Shown here one piece after another: positions 26,847 to 37,114 of a stretch of 64,000 bases of DNA; position 1 is the stretch's first letter; the number at the start of each line of letters is the position of its first letter. The notes beneath the pieces are model-generated. The model did no database searches. It saw only the letters and a list, made by a program, of their open reading frames with translations, and was not told the origin of the DNA. Both the position numbers and the translations under genes were made by a program. Source of the stretch: an uncultured Rickettsiales bacterium (GTDB lineage Bacteria; Myxococcota_A; UBA796; UBA9615); NCBI GenBank assembly GCA_964344575.1, contig CAYFOA010000011.1:4193-68192 (forward strand), read 5' to 3'.

Positions 26847-29682
26847 ATGCCGGCGATGGGGCGCTACCTGCGGCTGCGAGCCGGCACCGTCGACCTGCTC
26901 CGGGGGGAGCTGGAGCGCGACGGGCGCGCCGTCCGGCTGTCCACGCGGGAGCTCGACCTGCTGACGTACCTGGCGCTCCGGGCGGGGCGGAGCGTCTCCC
27001 GCGAGGAGCTGCTCACCGAGGTCTGGGAGCACCACCCCGACTCGCTCAGCCGCGCGGTCGACAAGACGATGACGCGGCTCCGGTCGAAGCTGGAGCTCGA
27101 CCCCGCCCACCCCGACCACCTCGTCACGGTGTTCGGTGAGGGCTACCGGTTCGTCCCCCGGCCGGACACGGCGGAGCTGCCGCTGCCGCCGGCGGCGTGT
27201 CCGACGAACCTCCCCGCGGCGATCGACACGTTCCTGGGGCGCGCCGATCTGCTCGCCGCGATCGAGGCGGCGTACGCCGGCGGGCGGCGGCTCGTCACGC
27301 TCCTCGGGCTGGGGGGGATCGGCAAGACGCGGGCGGCGCAGGAGTTCGCGCGGGCCCGGCTCGCGGAGGACGACGGTCCGTCGGGCGGCGTCTGGTTCTG
27401 CGACCTCGCGGCGGTGAGCACGCCCGCCGGGCTGGTCCGGACCGTGGCGGCGGCCCTGGGGCTCGATCTGGCGCCGGGCGATCCGGACGCGGTGGACCGG
27501 CTCGGCCGCGTGCTCGCCTCGCGCGGAGAGCTGCTCCTCCTGCTCGACAACCTCGACGACGTCGCCGGGGAGGCGGGCGGTCCGCTGGTGCGGTGGATGC
27601 GCGCCGCGCCGGAGCTCCGAATCCTGGGGACGAGCCGGACCCGCCTCGGCGCCCCGGGGGAGACCGTCCTCGAGGTGGGACCCCTGGAGGGAGACGCGGC
27701 CGCCGCGCTGTTCATCGATCGGGCGGCTGCGGTGCGCGGGGGACTGGGACCTCGCACGATCGCGCCGGGAGCACGCGCCGCGACGGCCTCGGGGGGGCAG
27801 CCCGCGGTGGACGACGGCGCGGTCTCGGAGCTGGTCGGGCGGCTGGACGGCATCCCCCTGGCGATCGAGCTGGCCGCGTCCCGGGCGGCGGTCGCCCGGC
27901 CCCAGGAGCTGCTCGACGACCTCGACTCGGTGCTCGACCTCGACGGACCGGCGGGGGCTCCGGAGCGTCACAGCTCGCTCCGCGCGACGCTGACGGCGTC
28001 GTGGTGGCGGCTGACGGAGCGGCAACGAGGGCACGTCGCCGCGTGCGCGCTGTTCCGCGGCGGGTTCGACCTCGCGGCGGCCGAGGCGGTGCTCGGCGTG
28101 GGGGGCCGGACCGCGACGCAGCGGGTCCTCGGGGAGCTCCGGGACCGGTCGTGGCTCCGGGCGACGATCGCGGACGGCGCCCTGGGCTGGCGGTTCTCGC
28201 TCTACCCGGTGGTGGCGCGGTTCGTGGCGACCGTCGCCGAGGCGCCGGCGGACGCGGTGGAGCGCCACGGCCGCCACTACCTCGACCTCGCCGAGCAGCT
28301 CCTCCCGGCGAGCCGGCGGCGGGGGGGCGAGCGGGCGCGGCGGCGGCTCCGGGGGGAGCGGGCGAACCTGCTCGAGGTGCACCGCCGTTCGCTGGACACG
28401 GCCCCGGCGCGGGCGGCCCGGGCGGTGCTCGCGATCGACCCCGTCAACGTCGCCCGGGCGCCCACGAGCGGTGACCTGTGGCGGCTCCGCTCGGCGGTGG
28501 AGCAGGCGGACAAGGCGGGGGACGGGCCGCTGAGGCAGCGGGCCCGGGTGGCGCTCGCCACGGCGCTGTGGCGGCGCGGCAACCGGGACGAGGCGGACGC
28601 GGTGCTGGAGCAGGCGGATCTCGACGCCGATCCGGTTGGCGCGGCGGAGATCCTCAACCGGCTCGCCGTCCACCGGATGTACACGGGTCATCCCGGGGTC
28701 GCGCAGTCCCTGATGGAGCGCTCGCTCGGGCTGGTGTCGGGGCGGGACGCGTACGCGGAGGCGGGGACGGTCGGCCAGATCGGGATCCTCCTCGACCGGA
28801 TCGGGCGGCCGCTCGACGCGCTGGAGCACCACGAGCGGGCGCTGGCGCTGCTGGAGCCGACCGGGGACCTCGTCCGGCTCGGGCGCGTCCTCAACAACCT
28901 CGGCATCTCGTACCTCCACCTCGCCGATCACGCCGCCGCGCAGCGCTACCTGGAGCGGGCGCTGGCGGCGCGGCGGGACGTCGGCGATCGGAGCGGCGAG
29001 GCGATCACGATGGGGAACCTGGCGTCGGTCCTGGCGGAGCTCGGCCGCCCCGAGGAGGCCGAGACGTGCCTCCGGTCTGCGATCGCGATGGCGCGGGCGA
29101 CGGGGGCGATCCTGTACGCGGGGATGTACACGGCGAACCTGGGGATCCTCTGCCTCGACCAGGGACGCCACGCCGAGGCGGGGGAGTACCTCGAGGAGGC
29201 GCGGGCGATCGCGGTCCGGCTGGAGCTGCCCCGGAGCGAGACGGTGGCGGTGACGAACCTCGCGATCCTCGGCTGGCTGCGCGGCGAGCACGTGACGGTG
29301 GAGCGGGCGTGGGCGCGGCTGGACGCCGTGTTCGCGGAGGGCGGCGTCGGCGTGATGGAGCACGAGTCGGCGGTGTTCCGGGCGGCGTGGCTCGCGGACC
29401 GGGGCGGCGGCGGCGGTGCTGGAGGTGGCGCGGGCGGCGCTGGGACCGGGGGGACGGTCCGAGGGCGGCCTCCTGACGGCGGAGGCCTGGGTCGCGCTGG
29501 GGCGCTCGCGGGCGGCCGGCGAGGGGGTCGCGGGGCGCCACCGGGCCGAGGCGGCGGCGCTGCTGGAGCGGGCGTTCGCGGTGACGGGGCCGGGGCGGCT
29601 GGGACCGCTGAACCGGGTGTTCGGGCGGCGCCTGCGGGAGGTCCTGGAGGCCGGGCCGGGCGTTCCGTCGCCCTCCGCTTGA
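26847..29682 (+). CDS. SARP/AfsR-like regulator: N-terminal OmpR-type winged helix + NB-ARC/STAND ATPase + TPR repeats; apparent -1/+2 frameshift near 29400-29416
   Basis: wHTH TRELDLLTYLALRAGRSVSREELLTEVW...GYRF. P-loop LLGLGGIGKTRAA. LPLAIELAA. TPR-like repeats. After ...AAWLADRGGGG the protein-like reading continues in another frame (ORF 29416..29682: LEVARAALGPGG...REVLEAG) across a (GGC)n tract. The original frame turns into Gly/Arg low-complexity sequence. Confidence 0.7.
29401..29416 (+). repeat. (GGC)5 trinucleotide tract at the apparent frameshift site of the SARP-like regulator
   Basis: ggggcggcggcggcggtgc. The protein-like reading frame changes here. Confidence 0.7.
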
Positions 29683-29714
29683 CCCCCTGGGACGTGCTCG
29701 GCACATTGCCGCGC

Positions 29715-30164
29715 ATGTCCGACGTCTTCGTGTCCGCGTCCCTCGAGATCCGCGCCCCGCGCGCCCACGTCGCCGGCATCGCGGGCCTCGCGACGGAGGC
29801 CAAGGGGTGGCTCTGGTCCCCGGCCCAGGTGGCGGGTGAGGCGACGTCCCGCGACCTCCCCGACGGCACCCGCCAGCTGGTCGTGGCGGACGGGGACAAG
29901 CTGCGCGACCGGATCGTGGAGGCGAGCGACGAGCGCGTCGTCATCGACAGCGAGTACCGCCCCCGCAACGCCGACGTCCGCGGCCGACACCTCCGCTACG
30001 AGCTGTCCCTGGAGGCGGGCCCGGGGACGACGAACGCGACCCTCGGCCTCGCCTTCGAAGACCGCGCCGCCCCCACCTCCCCCGTCGAGACGAGGCGCTA
30101 CCGCCGCCACGCCGAGCAGTGCCTGGCGAGGCTCTCGGCCCTGGCGATCCCCGAAGGGGCGTGA
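29715..30164 (+). CDS. Small SRPBCC/polyketide-cyclase-like protein (150 aa), tentative
   Basis: Internal ATG at 29715 gives MSDVFVSASLEIRAPRAHV...GWLWSPAQV...LRYELSLEAGPGTTNATLGLAFE. The pattern resembles Bet v1-like/SRPBCC folds. Composition is protein-like. It lies in-frame downstream of the frameshifted regulator ORF. Confidence 0.5.
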   Translation: MSDVFVSASLEIRAPRAHVAGIAGLATEAKGWLWSPAQVAGEATSRDLPDGTRQLVVADGDKLRDRIVEASDERVVIDSEYRPRNADVRGRHLRYELSLEAGPGTTNATLGLAFEDRAAPTSPVETRRYRRHAEQCLARLSALAIPEGA

Positions 30165-31539: not shown

Positions 31540-32028
31540 TTACCTCGCCGCCGCGAGCCCCAGGATCCGGCGGACGTCGCCGATGGTGCGGTCGAGCAGC
31601 GCCTCGGCGGGGCCCGTCTTGTAGAGGCCGCCCGAGGCCCGGCCCGCCGCGAACGCGCGGAGGGTCCGTCGGGGCATGAGGAGGAGGCCCCAGGCCATCC
31701 CCAGCAGGTTGATCAGCCAGGCGAACCAGAAGCGGCCGCAGCCGGCGCCGATCTCGAACGCCGACATCTCGAACTCTCCCCGCCAGTCGGTCGCGTAGCC
31801 GGTCAGGATGTGGTGCAGATCGTGGTACGCGAGCGCCGCCACGCGGGCCGGCGGGTTGGGCACGGGGAGCCGCAGGGGGCCGAACTCGAAGATGTCGAAG
31901 GTCTTGCCGTAGCCGCCGTCGGCGCCGAAGCCGTTGGCCTCGAAGTAGGCCGTGCGGGCGTCGCGGAGGGTCATGTCGTCGCGGTAGGTCGTCGTGGTCG
32001 TCGTCGTGGTCGTCGTCGTGGTCGTCAT
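31540..32028 (-). CDS. Coq4-family protein (HDxxH-x11-E zinc motif) with N-terminal poly-Thr tract
   Basis: YHDLHHILTGYATDWRGEFE matches the Coq4 motif HDxxH(x11)E. ATG at 32026-32028 gives MTTTTTTTTTTTTTTYRDDMTLRD. An alternative start is the internal M of MTLRD. Confidence 0.6.
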   Translation of the reverse strand: MTTTTTTTTTTTTTYRDDMTLRDARTAYFEANGFGADGGYGKTFDIFEFGPLRLPVPNPPARVAALAYHDLHHILTGYATDWRGEFEMSAFEIGAGCGRFWFAWLINLLGMAWGLLLMPRRTLRAFAAGRASGGLYKTGPAEALLDRTIGDVRRILGLAAAR

Positions 32029-32036
32029 CGTGGTCG
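31985..32036 (-). repeat. ACG/ACC trinucleotide repeat encoding poly-Thr(14) at the Coq4-like N-terminus
   Basis: gtcgtggtcgtcgtcgtggtcgtcgtcgtggtcgtc on the plus strand. Confidence 0.9.
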
Positions 32037-32138
32037 TCCTCTCTCTGCTTCCACGATGCGTCCCCCCGAGGACGCCCCGAAGCAAACGCGAGCGACTCCC
32101 CGTCGATCCTAGAATCACCAGGGATTTCAAACGCTTGG

Positions 32139-33178: not shown

Positions 33179-33254
33179 CGGCTCCTCCCGCCCCAGGATA
33201 CCTCCACAAGTCCTCAATGAACGGCCGCGCGTGCCCGTGCAAGGGTCGTCGGCG

Positions 33255-35792
33255 GTGCGGAGCTGGGTCCTGGGCGTGACGGTCGCCGTCGCGCTGTCGT
33301 GGTCGATGTCGGGCTGTCCCGAGGCCGACGCCCCCGTCCCCCCCGAGCCCTACACGCCGCCTCCCCGAGCGCTGGACGCGGGGGCGTTCACGGGGCTCCA
33401 TCGCCTCACCGACGCCGAGTGGCGCAACGCCGCCGAAGACCTCACCGGGGTCCGCTGGGAGGGGGACCTGCCGCAGGATCTCGTGCTTCACGGCTACTCC
33501 TCGGTGGGCGCCGCCGAGACGACGGTCGCCCCGCTCGACTTCGAGCTCTACGAGGCCGCCGCCTGGGCCGTCGCCGAGGCCGCCGTCCCCGACGCCGACG
33601 CCCGGGACGCGATCGTCGGGTGCGACGCCACGCCGCTCCTCGGGCTCGAGGACGAGCTCCTCGACAGCGCCGCGTGCATCCGGACCTTCGCCGCGGGCCT
33701 CCTCGAGCAGGCCTGGCGCCGCCCCGCCTCGGGCGAGGAGGCGGACGCCTACGTCGCGCTGTACGACGACGTCGTCGCCCAGACCGGGCGCTCGGTGCTC
33801 GCCGTGCAGGCGGTCCTCGCCGCGGCGATGGCGGCCCCCGACTTCCTCTTCCGCGTCGAGCTCGGCCGCGAGCGGGACGGCGACCCCACCCGGCGGTGGC
33901 TGACCGACCACGAGATGTGGGCCCGGCTCCGGCTGACGATCCAGGACCAGCCCGGCTTCGGGGAGATCGACGCGTCCGACGAGGCCGCCGTCGCCGAGGC
34001 GGCGCTGTCGCTGTGGATGGCGGCCCAGTCCGGCGACGCGGCCGTCCGCTTCCTCGGCGAGTGGTGGGACCTCGAGGGGATCTGGCTGACGTCGAAGGAC
34101 CCGACGATGTTCCCGCAGTGGAACGACGCCCTGAAGGCGGGCCTCGTCGCCGAGGCGGAGTCGATGTTCCTCGACCTCGTCGACGCCGACGGCGACGTCC
34201 GCGACCTCCTCACCACCACCGAGGCATGGGTCACCCCCGAGGTGGCGGCGCTGTACGGCGTTTCGGCCCCCGCGGACGGGCTGACCCTCGTCGAGCTCCC
34301 CGCCGACCGGGCGGGCCTCCTCGGTCGCGGCGCGTTCCTGGCGCCGAACGCCCACGCCACGCTGACGTCGCCCACCCTCCGGGGCAAGTTCGTCCGCGCG
34401 CGGCTTCTCTGCCAGGACATCCCCCCGCCGCCGGAGGGCGTCATCGCGAGCCTCGACGGGGTCGACGACACGGGCACGCTCCGCCAGCAGCTCGAGCAGC
34501 ACATGGAGGACGACGCCTGCCGCCCCTGCCACGAGCAGATGGACCCGATCGGCTTCGCCTTCGAGCACTTCGACCCCGCCGGCGCGTGGCGGGACACCGA
34601 CCGCGGCCACCCCGTCGACGCCGCCTCGGACATCGACGGCACGCCGGTCGAGGGAGCGGCCGACGTCGGCGCCGTCGTGGCAGCCCACGGGCGGCTCCCC
34701 GGGTGCGTCACGATCAACGCCTGGAGCCACCTCCTCGGCCACATCGAGCAGCACGACGAGGACGACTCCATCGACGCCGTCGCCGGCCGCTTCGAGGCGG
34801 GCGGGTACCGGCTGTCGGAGCTGCACGTCGCCGTCGCCGAGACGATCGACTTCCGCAGCCTCCGCGCCCCCGACGGCGGCGAGTGCACCCTCGACGAGGA
34901 GGGCGCCACCCGCGCCTGCGCGACGGACTGCGGCGACGGCACGGAGACCTGCCGCGGCGGCGTGTGGACGGCCTGCACCGCGACGCGGCCGGCGCGCGAG
35001 GCCTGCAACGGGGTCGACGACGACTGCGACGGCCTGGTGGACGAGGAGGTGATCGCGTCGTGCGAGCCCGAGGGCGGCGGGGCCGGCCTCCGGACGTGCT
35101 CCGAGGGCGCGTGGTCGGACTGCGCCTCCCCGAACGTCGCCCGCGAGACGTGCAACGGCGTCGACGACGACGGCGACGGGCTGGTCGACGAGGAGCTGGC
35201 CGTCGACTTCCGCTCGGTGACGTCGGAGCAGCTCGCGTCCCGCCACCCCAGCTGCCAGCCCGCGCTCACGTCGAGCTGGACGGACAACTGCCGCTCAGCG
35301 GTCCACCGCGAGTGCGCCGCGGTCGGCTGCGGCCCCACCGGGATCGGGCCCATCGCCATGGCCGGCAGCAGCGCCTACGGGACGATCGCGTGCCTCTCGT
35401 CCGACGAAGCGGTCGTCCTGGAGACGTCCTTCACCGCCCTCGCCGCCCACCACGAGTGGTGCACCCAGGGCAACGCGTTCAGCCGCGACTGCAACGCGGC
35501 CATCCACCGCTGGTGCTCGGCCTCGGGGCTGGTCACCGGCTATGGCCCCATCGAGCACAGCGGCGACCTCGCCATCGTCGCCTGCAAGCCCGGCGCGACG
35601 CCCTACGGGACGACGTACACGGAGATGTCGGCGTTCCACCCGACGTGCAACGGCGGCGCCCAGCGCAGCGGCGAGGAGTGCGACGAGGCGTACCACCGGT
35701 TCTGCCGCGCCAACGGGCACCGCACGGGCCACGGACCGCTGGAGAACAGCGGCGACGTCGTGTGGGTCGCGTGCATCGGGAGCCTCGAATGA
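33255..35792 (+). CDS. DUF1592/DUF1588-family protein (CxxCH-containing) lipoprotein with C-terminal MopE-like repeats and a triple Cys-rich ~55-aa repeat
   Basis: GTG at 33255 gives MRSWVLGVTVAVALSWSMSGC (lipobox). CRPCHEQMDPIGFAFEHFDPAGAWR is typical of the DUF1588 haem-binding-like region. It is paired with DUF1552. C-terminal repeats are CNGVDDDCDGLVDEE x2 and three HxxC...GxGP[IL]E[HN]SGD..[IV]AC modules. Confidence 0.85.
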   Translation: MRSWVLGVTVAVALSWSMSGCPEADAPVPPEPYTPPPRALDAGAFTGLHRLTDAEWRNAAEDLTGVRWEGDLPQDLVLHGYSSVGAAETTVAPLDFELYEAAAWAVAEAAVPDADARDAIVGCDATPLLGLEDELLDSAACIRTFAAGLLEQAWRRPASGEEADAYVALYDDVVAQTGRSVLAVQAVLAAAMAAPDFLFRVELGRERDGDPTRRWLTDHEMWARLRLTIQDQPGFGEIDASDEAAVAEAALSLWMAAQSGDAAVRFLGEWWDLEGIWLTSKDPTMFPQWNDALKAGLVAEAESMFLDLVDADGDVRDLLTTTEAWVTPEVAALYGVSAPADGLTLVELPADRAGLLGRGAFLAPNAHATLTSPTLRGKFVRARLLCQDIPPPPEGVIASLDGVDDTGTLRQQLEQHMEDDACRPCHEQMDPIGFAFEHFDPAGAWRDTDRGHPVDAASDIDGTPVEGAADVGAVVAAHGRLPGCVTINAWSHLLGHIEQHDEDDSIDAVAGRFEAGGYRLSELHVAVAETIDFRSLRAPDGGECTLDEEGATRACATDCGDGTETCRGGVWTACTATRPAREACNGVDDDCDGLVDEEVIASCEPEGGGAGLRTCSEGAWSDCASPNVARETCNGVDDDGDGLVDEELAVDFRSVTSEQLASRHPSCQPALTSSWTDNCRSAVHRECAAVGCGPTGIGPIAMAGSSAYGTIACLSSDEAVVLETSFTALAAHHEWCTQGNAFSRDCNAAIHRWCSASGLVTGYGPIEHSGDLAIVACKPGATPYGTTYTEMSAFHPTCNGGAQRSGEECDEAYHRFCRANGHRTGHGPLENSGDVVWVACIGSLE

Positions 35793-37114
35793 GCACGAAG
35801 CTCAGCCGCCGCCACGTCCTCAAGGCCGCCCTCGCCGGCGGCGGGCTGGCGACGATCCCGCTGCCTCTCCTCGAGATCATGATGGACGGCAACGGGACCG
35901 CGCTGGCGGGCGGCGAGGACCTCCCGACGCGCTTCGGGCTCTGGTTCTGGGGCAACGGGATCCGCCCCGAGCACTGGGTCCCGCCCACGACCGGCGAGAG
36001 CTGGACGCCGAGCGCCGAGCTGGAGCCGCTGACCGATCTCGTCCCCTACGTCAGCGTCGTCAGCGGCTGCGAGATCAAGACCGCGACCCACGCCCACCAC
36101 AGCGGCATGAGCGGGATCCTGACGGGCGAGCACTACCACCTGCTCGGATACGTCCGCGACACGATCGCGTCTACGTTGCCGTCCCAGTCGGTGGACCAGA
36201 TCGCCGCCGACTGGTTCGAGGGGCTGGCCCCCTTCCGCTCCGTCGAGGCGGGGGTGACGTGGTTCCGGGGGACGGACGAGGGGTCCGCCTTCCAGCACCT
36301 CAGCCACAACGGCCCGAACAACGTGAACCCCGCGGAGTACGACGTCGTCGCCCTCTACGAGCGGCTGTTCGCGATGCCGACCGACAGCGAGCGCGACCTC
36401 GCCCGCCAGTCGGTGCTCGACACGGTGGAGTGGAAGGGGACGCGCCTCCACGGCCGGCTCGGGGTCCGCGACCGCATCCGGATGGAGCAGTACCTCGACT
36501 CGATCCGCGCCCTGGAGACCCGCCTCGCCGAGGAGCCCGCCGCCTGCAGCGCGACCCCGCCCGCCTCCAGCTTCCCCGACGTCGACGGCCTGGAGCAGAT
36601 CGAGGAGAAGAACGCGGCCGTCGCCGACGTCCTCGCGATGGCGCTGACGTGCGACCTGATGCGGTCGTTCAGCGTCCTCTGGAGCACCGCCGGCAGCGGC
36701 GTCATCGTGTGGCAGGCGGGGGGGACGTACTCGATGCACGCGACCTGCCACGAGGAGCCGATGCCGCAGCCGACGGTCCACGCCTGCACGACGTGGACGA
36801 TGGGCAACCTCGCCACCTTCCTGCGGACGCTGCGGGACACCCCCGAGGGGGACGGCAACCTGCTCGACCGCTGCTCGATCCTGTGCACGTCGGAGCTGTC
36901 GGACGGGTGGACGCACGCCAACACCGAGTTCCCCATCCTCGTCGCGGGCAAGGGCGGCGGCCGCCTCCGCGGCGGGATCCACTACCGCTCGACGACCAAC
37001 CGGAACACGTCGGACGCGGTCCTGACGGCGCTGCACGGCGCGGGCGTCGAGGTGGACAGCTTCGGCGTCGACGCGGGCTGGACGAACACGACGGTCGGCG
37101 AGCTCCTGACCTAG
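35789..37114 (+). CDS. DUF1552-family protein with twin-arginine (Tat) signal
   Basis: MSTKLSRRHVLKAALAGGGLATIPL is a Tat motif. It makes an ATGA overlap with the upstream DUF1592 gene. This is the conserved DUF1592/DUF1552 pairing. Confidence 0.85.
   Translation: MSTKLSRRHVLKAALAGGGLATIPLPLLEIMMDGNGTALAGGEDLPTRFGLWFWGNGIRPEHWVPPTTGESWTPSAELEPLTDLVPYVSVVSGCEIKTATHAHHSGMSGILTGEHYHLLGYVRDTIASTLPSQSVDQIAADWFEGLAPFRSVEAGVTWFRGTDEGSAFQHLSHNGPNNVNPAEYDVVALYERLFAMPTDSERDLARQSVLDTVEWKGTRLHGRLGVRDRIRMEQYLDSIRALETRLAEEPAACSATPPASSFPDVDGLEQIEEKNAAVADVLAMALTCDLMRSFSVLWSTAGSGVIVWQAGGTYSMHATCHEEPMPQPTVHACTTWTMGNLATFLRTLRDTPEGDGNLLDRCSILCTSELSDGWTHANTEFPILVAGKGGGRLRGGIHYRSTTNRNTSDAVLTALHGAGVEVDSFGVDAGWTNTTVGELLT

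Follow-up and report, generated by a model that had tools for sequence, protein, structure and literature searches.

A three-unit, cysteine-rich module on a Myxococcota DUF1592/DUF1552 gene pair as a possible ligand-binding head

The 64,000-nucleotide stretch of DNA analysed here (the window) carries on its plus strand, to which all the coordinates below refer, two genes sharing a 4-base overlap in the context gaATGAgc. The first (33255..35792, stop included) codes for a putative PSCyt3/DUF1592-type lipoprotein of 845 amino acids; its 845-codon frame starts with a GTG at 33255 and is closed by the TGA at 35790-35792, and translation might alternatively start at GTG codons in the same frame at 33231 or 33237. 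The second (35789..37114, 441 aa) opens with the ATG at 35789-35791, overlapping the upstream stop, and encodes a DUF1552 (HXXSHH) protein. The pair and its ATGA overlap, already described in an earlier note on this DNA, are confirmed by the ORF coordinates and the Pfam scores, and the profile searches suggested there named PSD3, PSD5, PSD4, PSCyt3 and DUF1552, leaving unmatched a triple repeat at the end of the first protein. By sequence and by the tools applied to it, the locus is a translationally coupled two-gene system of the PSCyt3 type, with products predicted to be exported. The lipase-like, TetR, DUF6463, short-chain dehydrogenase and 2-hydroxyacid dehydrogenase genes of the window are not kept beside the pair in the other loci that we compared, and a short-chain dehydrogenase was found near the pair in only 4 of them.

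The translation of the large protein begins with the putative signal peptide VRSWVLGVTVAVALSWSMSGC (33255..33317), of which the lipobox-like end SMSGC leads to Cys21, with Met at −3, Ser at −2 and Gly at −1 (…LSWSMSGC). This putative lipobox agrees with the lipoprotein-type leader previously proposed, and the stand-alone relatives described below have a hydrophobic leader ending in Cys with clearer boxes (LLLVGC, LLGC and LSGC). The leader is followed by a conserved core with the order PSD3-PSD5-PSD4-PSCyt3-PSD2 (33402..34844), identified by Pfam hmmscan and homologous in 59 proteins of the loci compared. Four of these domains stand in the expected order and exceed their gathering scores: PSD3/DUF1587 (aa 50-111, 33.0 bits, cut-off 23), PSD5/DUF1595 (aa 141-202, 49.7 bits, cut-off 34.2), PSD4/DUF1592 (aa 242-336, 48.0 bits, cut-off 23.3) and PSCyt3/DUF1588 (aa 352-449, 105.9 bits, cut-off 27). 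PSD2/DUF1585 (aa 461-530) scored 18.0 bits against a cut-off of 25.8, covering profile positions 1-71 of 74 in its expected place after PSCyt3. The CxxCH motif noticed earlier is present within the PSCyt3 domain as CRPCH (aa 422-426, 34518..34532), and in an alignment of 59 orthologues its two Cys and its His are each kept by 95% or more of the sequences. This is the one conserved motif of the haem-c type in the core, a putative site of covalent haem attachment. A PDB sequence search with the DUF1592 core gave no credible match.

The partner protein, whose N-terminus is MSTKLSRRHVLK, matches DUF1552/HXXSHH (PF07586) with 164.7 bits against a cut-off of 30, over profile positions 1-306 of 307. 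Its translated leader MSTKLSRRHVLKAALAGGGLATIPLPLLEI (35789..35878) contains the motif SRRHVLK, of which R7 and R8 are each retained by 90% or more of 49 orthologues, in agreement with the twin-arginine leader of the earlier reading; the Tat models PF10518 (20.6, cut-off 22.7) and TIGR01409 (15.9, cut-off 16.7) score slightly under their thresholds. In the predicted model we observed the core alpha/beta fold of the alkaline-phosphatase superfamily, which includes phosphatases, phosphodiesterases and sulfatases, and invariant His, Asp and Glu residues are present in the protein (H103, H104, D289, H317, H321, E369 and H376). The protein shares no more than 9-13% sequence identity with known members of the superfamily, such as the ENPP phosphodiesterases, S1 sulfatases, PafA and MCR-1/EptC, and WFWGNG closes its first core strand, where the metal-binding Asp usual in these enzymes is missing. 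As with the core of the large protein, searching the PDB by sequence returned no credible match for the DUF1552 protein.

Between the core and the C-terminus of the large protein lies a Cys-rich, acidic stalk (aa 546-650, 34890..35204), defined from the translation and from its Cys positions, ten within it and Cys544 just ahead, which make eleven. Two MopE-like modules, located by regular expression and translation, are contained in it: module 1, CNGVDDDCDGLVDE (35004..35045), and module 2, CNGVDDDGDGLVDE (35151..35192), in which the second Cys is replaced by Gly. Both modules reported in the earlier note do exist, and the pattern given for them fits module 1 only. The stalk shares the motif CNG-x-DDDCDG-xx-DE with the MopE-like or acidic double-disulfide repeats of PF11617 and NF033662. 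Unlike members of these families, the two modules of the window remain below the curated cut-offs, with 22.1 bits for Cu-binding_MopE (PF11617) on the large protein, under the gathering cut-off of 27, and 17 bits for the NCBIfam acid_disulf_rpt (NF033662) on module 2, under a cut-off of 41.

The last 195 residues (aa 651-845), hereafter the head, consist of three tandem units: unit 1 (aa 651-718, 35205..35408; five Cys and the most divergent), unit 2 (aa 719-782, 35409..35600; four Cys) and unit 3 (aa 783-845, 35601..35789; four Cys), which ends at the protein C-terminus. Between-unit Smith-Waterman scores of 76-130 were obtained against 25 ± 5 for shuffled sequences (z = 10.3-20.6), a level reached by none of 2000 shuffles, and 17 columns are invariant among the three units. 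The modules are therefore true repeats, as proposed, and the single pattern first written for them does not extend to unit 1, which shows IAMAGSS at the place taken by IEHSGD or LENSGD in the other two. The structure prediction that had been suggested for the triple repeat was carried out with AF2 and returned one confident domain (pLDDT 90.5, pTM 0.86), in which each unit of about 63 aa is modelled as a strand, two helices and a hairpin with four invariant Cys. Moreover, for 80% of the units the best match in another protein is the unit at the same position within the module, indicating that the triplication is old and that the triple is the unit of function. The head is thus one compact domain made of three anciently triplicated units, and it works as a triple module of about 190 aa rather than as a repeat of 55-63 aa.

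No named domain could be assigned to the triple repeat, as the earlier note had anticipated. The head matched no Pfam family at E ≤ 1, NCBIfam recovered only the stalk motif, no Pfam family covers the three-unit module in 148 relatives, and the triple repeat and the MopE-like motif are different entities. A PDB sequence search with the tail as a single sequence found nothing, no significant structural neighbour of the head was present in the PDB, and none of the known lectin or carbohydrate-binding families matches it by sequence or fold. With a family profile, plant DJ-1D (3uk7) appeared at E = 4e-4 overall, its best stretch having E = 0.15; since the similarity is local and Cys/Ala-rich, and the protein belongs to another fold class, we rejected it as probably spurious. 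The DUF1471-type small periplasmic domains were counted among the closest known systems; we take 2ma8 (SrfN), 2m2j (STM1478), 4evu (YdgH) and 2jna (STM0082) to be structures of this type.

Conservation within the family bears on the chemistry of the head. Each of the 12 core Cys is retained in 97% or more of 119 modules, and the fifth Cys of unit 1 in 82%; stalk and head together hold 24 Cys, an even number. In a protein that is probably exported, the conservation of the core Cys and their even count favour disulfides. The earlier note had suggested a metal- or ligand-binding addition. In the metal version, the head, perhaps with the MopE-like modules, would use its His and Cys to bind Cu, Zn or Fe. 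In favour of this, every unit of the window's copy has a His ahead of its first Cys and carries an HR pair within its long helix, and the stalk motif matches, if below cut-off, a Pfam family named Cu-binding_MopE. However, the two motif His positions are conserved in 50-70% of the 119 modules, neither reaching 70%, against the near-invariance of the Cys, and the acidic Cys motif of the stalk, sub-threshold here, contains no His; the conserved Glu and Asp could suggest calcium at most. A conserved His-based metal site as a family-wide property was therefore rejected, and metal binding by the head is in our opinion hardly likely. Beyond the Cys, conservation extends to an aromatic residue of strand 1, to an Arg of the long helix and to the strand-2 motif G-[FY]-G-P-x-E; all of these could be purely structural, for instance if Arg and Glu form a buried salt bridge and the aromatic belongs to the core.

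We also considered that the head might have no ligand of its own, being a stabilising cap or spacer, or that its units might be defensin-like antimicrobial peptide domains used in predation. In the cysteine-stabilised alpha/beta (defensin-like) motif, a helical CxxxC is bonded to a CxC of the last strand; in the head units the helix has instead the spacing C-x7-C, and the last strand contains just one Cys. The scores for the cap or defensin-like reading fell within the noise range, and both the strict packaging in threes and the high predicted inter-unit confidence speak for one globular domain rather than for released peptides. We judge this explanation very improbable.

To what extent the module is peculiar to this locus was evaluated from its distribution. 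A word-index search with the 200-aa tail gave only 7 proteins, and an exhaustive HMM scan found the module in 657 representatives of 50%-identity clusters; the extreme rarity suggested by the former was thus rejected. Exactly three units are present in 139 of 156 family proteins, the remainder having mostly six or nine, with two-unit fragments and a few cases of four or eight; the module is sometimes repeated in two or three tandem copies, as in the nine-unit protein P0008. It is almost always C-terminal, ending within 3 residues of the C-terminus (0-3) in most members, and it is usually preceded by MopE-like modules, which, counted as Pfam matches to PF11617, occur in 52 of 148 head-family representatives, one of them at E = 1.8e-96. 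A role as a C-terminal sorting signal was discarded, given the 190 aa of the module, its internal position in several proteins and its tandem copies. Among the 148 best representatives, only about one in five is of the DUF1592 type; the module is also borne by a GH5 cellulase with WSC (P0023) and by beta-helix, PKD, Big_2 (Ig-like), trypsin, M10, C1 and B_lectin proteins. Therefore, rather than a one-off addition to this protein, the head represents a sizeable, undescribed mobile domain family centred on Myxococcota, where many secreted proteins and lipoproteins carry it. Comparing domain architectures, as the earlier note had advised, upholds the lack of a name for the triple repeat, yet reveals it in many proteins other than DUF1592.

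To evaluate the link between the module and the two-gene system, we compared 80 genome loci, nearly all from Myxococcota MAGs, which were picked by similarity to the fused module of the window, a choice that inflates the fused share. The module is fused to a DUF1592-type protein in 40 of them, in 39 of which DUF1552 adjoins; in a further 20 a separate module gene and the DUF1592/DUF1552 pair lie within 6 kb, and in the last 20 the module occurs with no pair within this distance. Hence, in 60/80 loci the module is fused to the DUF1592 protein or no more than 6 kb from the pair. The separate genes encode lipoproteins in which a like stalk precedes the three-unit module. As read from the coordinates, 14 of these 20 genes are divergent from the pair, 2 convergent and 2 downstream on the same strand, and the other 2 probably derive from fused genes that a frameshift or the end of a contig has split; a divergent arrangement was likewise found on a 192-kb metagenome contig (P0003). 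The link is stronger than could be seen from the window, the only source of the earlier note. On the other hand, a link to DUF1592 is missing from the 20 loci without the pair and from the majority of the 148 representatives, so that the module is not specific to this system; the genes flanking the stand-alone module in three loci (L001-L003) are not common to most of the others.

Fusion in some genomes and a separate adjacent gene in others, as in the 60 loci and the metagenome contig, are the classic signature of interacting partners, and the head is conserved about as well as the core (median identity 44% and 40%, respectively, in 54 loci). These observations could be explained by a protein-protein docking or assembly subunit, with the head acting as a third subunit devoted to binding either the DUF1552 enzyme or the core of the DUF1592 protein. 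However, the module is also attached to unrelated enzymes (GH5 with WSC, proteases, beta-helix proteins), a quarter of the loci lack a nearby pair, and duplication to six or nine units is better suited to avidity for a repetitive ligand than to a single partner. We consider docking unlikely.

Our leading reading, which we hold to be roughly an even call, is that the head is a ligand-binding, targeting device on a disulfide-rich stalk, serving a system of a haem protein and a phosphatase/sulfatase-like enzyme. Gene 1 would provide a lipoprotein core, putatively a haem-c protein, with a C-terminal cassette of stalk, two MopE-like modules and the 195-aa head, and gene 2 an exported twin-arginine protein with the predicted alkaline-phosphatase-superfamily fold. 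Since fusion to these two genes, or a place next to them, is the usual condition of the module in related genomes, the head most likely assists the system in binding its target, probably a polymer, for instance a glycan or a component of the cell envelope. In this role it would resemble the carbohydrate-binding modules on PSCyt proteins of Planctomycetes and Verrucomicrobia, and would retain the haem protein, together with the phosphatase/sulfatase-like enzyme, on the substrate. The stalk-plus-head cassette, being a separate lipoprotein beside the pair in sister genomes, can be regarded as an optional third component. Ligand binding is plausible; that the ligand may be a sugar is suggested, indirectly, by the co-occurrence of the module with GH5 and WSC, B_lectin and beta-helix domains, with no homology to catalogued carbohydrate-binding families being found.

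A bolder proposal, which we put forward tentatively and consider possible rather than probable, is that the head is a new fold, as suggested by the lack of a neighbour in the PDB, and the substrate-recognition component of a three-part exported system of Myxococcota aimed at a phosphorylated or sulfated polymer. The three parts would be the haem-c lipoprotein, the Tat-exported enzyme of the alkaline-phosphatase superfamily and the binding head, and candidate substrates are the cell envelope of prey or algal glycans. If this were true, the ligand of the head would offer the first experimental handle on the targets of the widespread PSCyt3/DUF1552 systems.

Overall, the earlier interpretation stood for the pair, the CxxCH motif and the two leaders, and gave way on the one-off addition, on metal and on the 55-aa unit, replaced by the triple of about 190 aa. 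Another cysteine-rich extracellular domain in Myxococcota is in itself little surprise. Nevertheless, PSCyt/PSD proteins, together with their partners of the DUF1552 or DUF1501 type, abound in Planctomycetes, Verrucomicrobia and Myxococcota and have had no assigned function since their first description; our literature searches on the DUF numbers found no functional study. Three leads are now available, namely the predicted fold of the DUF1552 partner, a discrete and easily expressed module of about 195 aa tied to the system by fusion or adjacency, and an unnamed domain family that comprises several hundred sequence clusters, has been modelled with confidence and lacks known relatives in structure. 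The ligand of the module could reveal what the whole system works on.

Among known systems, Cbp2D of Cellvibrio japonicus combines a CBM2 with cytochrome domains and DUF1587 (PMC8981238). The large protein of the window is similarly a predicted exported protein, putatively of the c-type cytochrome kind, with a PSD3/DUF1587 region and a separate, putative binding module; its head has no sequence or fold similarity to that CBM2 or to other known carbohydrate-binding modules. It has been reported that PSCyt3 genes usually adjoin DUF1552 genes and that some PSCyt proteins bear carbohydrate-binding or protein-interaction domains (He et al. 2017, PMC5615132, Text S1). With the 'Group III' PSCyt3/PSD proteins of Planctomycetes and Verrucomicrobia (PMC5615132) the locus shares PSD3, PSD5, PSD4 and PSCyt3, completed here by a sub-threshold PSD2, the CxxCH motif and the adjacent DUF1552 gene; it differs from them in its Myxococcota lineage, in its lipoprotein-type leader and in the MopE-like stalk and unnamed three-unit head that replace their carbohydrate-binding or protein-interaction additions. 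What is new here is an unnamed three-unit, disulfide-rich domain on a known DUF1592/DUF1552 pair.

The DUF1592/DUF1552 pair described in the earlier note was confirmed by its Pfam domains, in a region of the window with a G+C content of ~73%. The gene of the large protein, on the forward strand, starts with a GTG at 33255 and its frame ends at 35792 (845 codons); a start at either of the in-frame GTGs 33231 and 33237 is an alternative. The translated product has the leader VRSWVLGVTVAVALSWSMSGC, with a lipobox-like Cys at its end, and is matched above the curated Pfam cut-offs by PSD3/DUF1587 (aa 50–111), PSD5/DUF1595 (aa 141–202), PSD4/DUF1592 (aa 242–336) and PSCyt3/DUF1588 (aa 352–449), and with a score below the cut-off by PSD2/DUF1585 (aa 461–530). 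The CxxCH motif expected in this protein is CRPCH, a haem-c motif at aa 422–426 inside PSCyt3, whose Cys residues and His are all at least 95% conserved when 59 orthologous cores of other genomes are aligned. The second gene, coding on the same strand for a DUF1552/HXXSHH protein of 441 aa (Pfam, 164.7 bits), starts at 35789 within 'gaATGAgc', with the expected ATGA overlap of 4 bases with the upstream stop. Its leader is MSTKLSRRHVLK, for which Tat models scored slightly below their cut-offs, and the twin Arg shows at least 90% conservation across 49 orthologues. The pair is predicted to be translationally coupled and exported from the cytoplasm. The pair is of a known kind and uncharacterised, and no functional study of it was found in the literature searched.

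In the window, the pair is flanked by genes for an alpha/beta-hydrolase lipoprotein, a TetR regulator, a DUF6463 membrane protein, a short-chain dehydrogenase and a 2-hydroxyacid dehydrogenase; these are unrelated genes and were not found conserved beside the pair at other loci. A 196-aa ORF at 31540–32130 on the reverse strand, which starts with a Met and then a run of 14 threonines (TTTMTTTTTTTTTTTTTTYRDD), has no Pfam match and contains the motif HDLHHILTGY, which we take to resemble Coq4-type proteins. Another ORF of 1105 aa (26847–30164, forward strand) has an OmpR-type winged-helix DNA-binding domain together with an AAA ATPase domain and TPR repeats; a long Gly/Ala/Arg-rich low-complexity stretch lies at ~aa 830–900, and its final ~200 aa may be part of a separate gene.

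The C-terminal part of the large protein consists of a stalk (aa 546–650) and a head (aa 651–845). The stalk is acidic and Cys-rich, contains CNGVDDDCDGLVDE and CNGVDDDGDGLVDE, and matches Pfam Cu-binding_MopE and NCBIfam acid_disulf_rpt below their cut-offs only; both of the proposed MopE-like modules are present, but the second has lost one Cys. The head is made of three tandem units of 63–68 aa, which share 17 invariant columns in their mutual alignment and give inter-unit Smith–Waterman scores of 76–130, against 25 ± 5 for shuffles (z = 10–21); the triple repeat was therefore correctly observed, although unit 1 is devoid of the E-x-SGD turn included in the proposed pattern. The 11 Cys of the stalk and 13 of the head, 24 in total, are consistent with 12 disulfides, one of which would link stalk to head.

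As the earlier note had supposed, the triple repeat corresponds to no named domain in the libraries searched: it has no match in Pfam-A or NCBIfam, no Pfam family spans it in 148 relatives, and sequence and profile searches of the PDB returned just a weak, probably spurious, match to DJ-1D. The domain family that the head represents is undescribed and has no structural neighbour in the PDB. An AlphaFold2 model from an 8-sequence alignment shows a confident single domain (pLDDT 90.5, pTM 0.86), in which each unit is formed by a strand, a short helix, a long helix and a hairpin. By sequence position, Cys 2 and Cys 3 fall in the long helix (C-x7-C), G-x-G-P in the first hairpin strand and Cys 4 in the last strand. 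Fold hits would suggest a defensin-like or purely structural head, but these hits, the sole basis for such a role, are at noise level, and we regard it as improbable.

A word-index search with the repeat tail retrieved 7 proteins only. This apparent rarity is a seeding artefact of the method on a Cys-rich and fast-diverging domain; in an exhaustive HMM scan covering 1.84 billion representatives, 657 matched with E ≤ 1e-3, and 183 of them with E ≤ 1e-30. Exactly three units were present in 139 of 156 inspected sequences, the remainder having mostly six or nine units or being two-unit fragments, and in most of the 156 the module ends 0–3 residues from the C-terminus. For 80% of the units, the best cross-protein match is with the same position within the module; therefore, the units were triplicated long ago, and it is the triple that acts as the functional unit. 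Across 119 full modules, the 12 core Cys are each at least 97% conserved and the fifth Cys of unit 1 is 82% conserved, together with the strand-1 aromatic residue, the long-helix Arg (82–90% in units 1 and 2) and G-[FY]-G-P-x-E. By contrast, the His residues of the proposed pattern are just 50–70% conserved in the same modules, and this does not support a histidine-based metal site, which we consider highly improbable.

Among the best 148 of the 657 representatives, the MopE motif was matched in 52 and about 26–28 were PSCyt3/PSD proteins; other carriers were a GH5 cellulase with WSC (P0023) and beta-helix, PKD, Big_2, He_PIG, trypsin, peptidase M10, peptidase C1 and B_lectin proteins. The stalk-and-head cassette recurs fused with, or adjacent to, the pair, and the head is reused on other secreted enzymes. 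A DUF1592-type metagenomic protein of 1454 aa (P0008), with an additional weak Cytochrome_CBB3 match close to the N-terminus, carries nine units, i.e., three whole heads in tandem (aa 836–1454), and thus the module can be multiplied on one scaffold.

The survey of genomic loci, with one genome per species, gave 80 loci, all from MAGs, of which ~62 are Myxococcota or 'Deltaproteobacteria' by record title (Polyangiales, Sandaracinaceae, Bradymonadia) and one is Oligoflexia, the others being generically named or evidently mislabelled. The closest module is 60% identical to that of the window, whose DUF1552 gene has an identical copy on a 4.3-kb ENA metagenome contig. Three MAGs titled 'Klebsiella pneumoniae' or 'uncultured Enterobacterales' (L043, L008, L015) contain a Myxococcota-type fused pair, with a module 44–47% identical to the window's, and look taxonomically mislabelled. 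Low-G+C relatives (L004, 5462–6265, and L080) carry the module outside high-G+C Myxococcota too.

The module is fused to a DUF1592-type core at 40 of the 80 loci, with DUF1552 immediately downstream in 39, in a sample selected by similarity to the window's module and thus favouring the fused form; this bias does not account for the adjacent-gene class, in which a separate module gene lies within 6 kb of a DUF1592+DUF1552 pair (20 loci). By coordinates, 14 of these are divergent, as on a 192-kb metagenome contig, 2 convergent and 2 same-strand downstream, while the last 2 are probably fused genes split by a frameshift or contig end. At locus L009 (4004–6624), core and three-unit head occupy two overlapping same-strand frames followed immediately by DUF1552, probably owing to a frameshift (assembly error or pseudogene) rather than a true split gene. 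The products of the separate genes are lipoproteins containing a low-complexity linker, three Cys-rich/MopE modules and the head, which is the cassette present as a fusion in the window; no other genes conserved alongside them were found. At the remaining 20 loci there is no nearby pair. Among the low-G+C relatives, P0007 comes after a CHASE2 histidine kinase and a sigma-54 response regulator, and in an Oligoflexia MAG the module comes after Thr/Ser-rich repeat regions; neither has the pair nearby. Fusion and adjacency speak for a dedicated docking subunit of the pair, the main rival reading of the head, which loses weight because unrelated enzymes carry the module too and because it occurs in tandem copies, and which appears unlikely.

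Regarding the partner enzyme, a PDB sequence search gave no relative of known structure for DUF1552 or the DUF1592 core. DUF1552 is predicted to adopt an alkaline-phosphatase-type fold; its orthologues have many invariant His, Asp and Glu, and its first core strand ends with WFWGNG instead of the usual Asp. The predicted fold suggests that DUF1552 may hydrolyse or transfer a phospho- or sulfo-ester in a metal-dependent manner.

New Cys-rich extracellular domains in Myxococcota are, of themselves, no surprise; the new leads are the genomic coupling of the module to the pair and the predicted fold of DUF1552. The finding is real, well delimited and testable, with an inferred function. We give an even chance to the head being a putative binding module, with a polymer as the ligand to which it would target the pair system or other enzymes. 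It could be an analogue of the carbohydrate-binding modules that He et al. (2017, PMC5615132) reported for PSCyt proteins from Verrucomicrobia and other PVC bacteria, and of the CBM2 carried by the cytochrome protein Cbp2D (PMC8981238).
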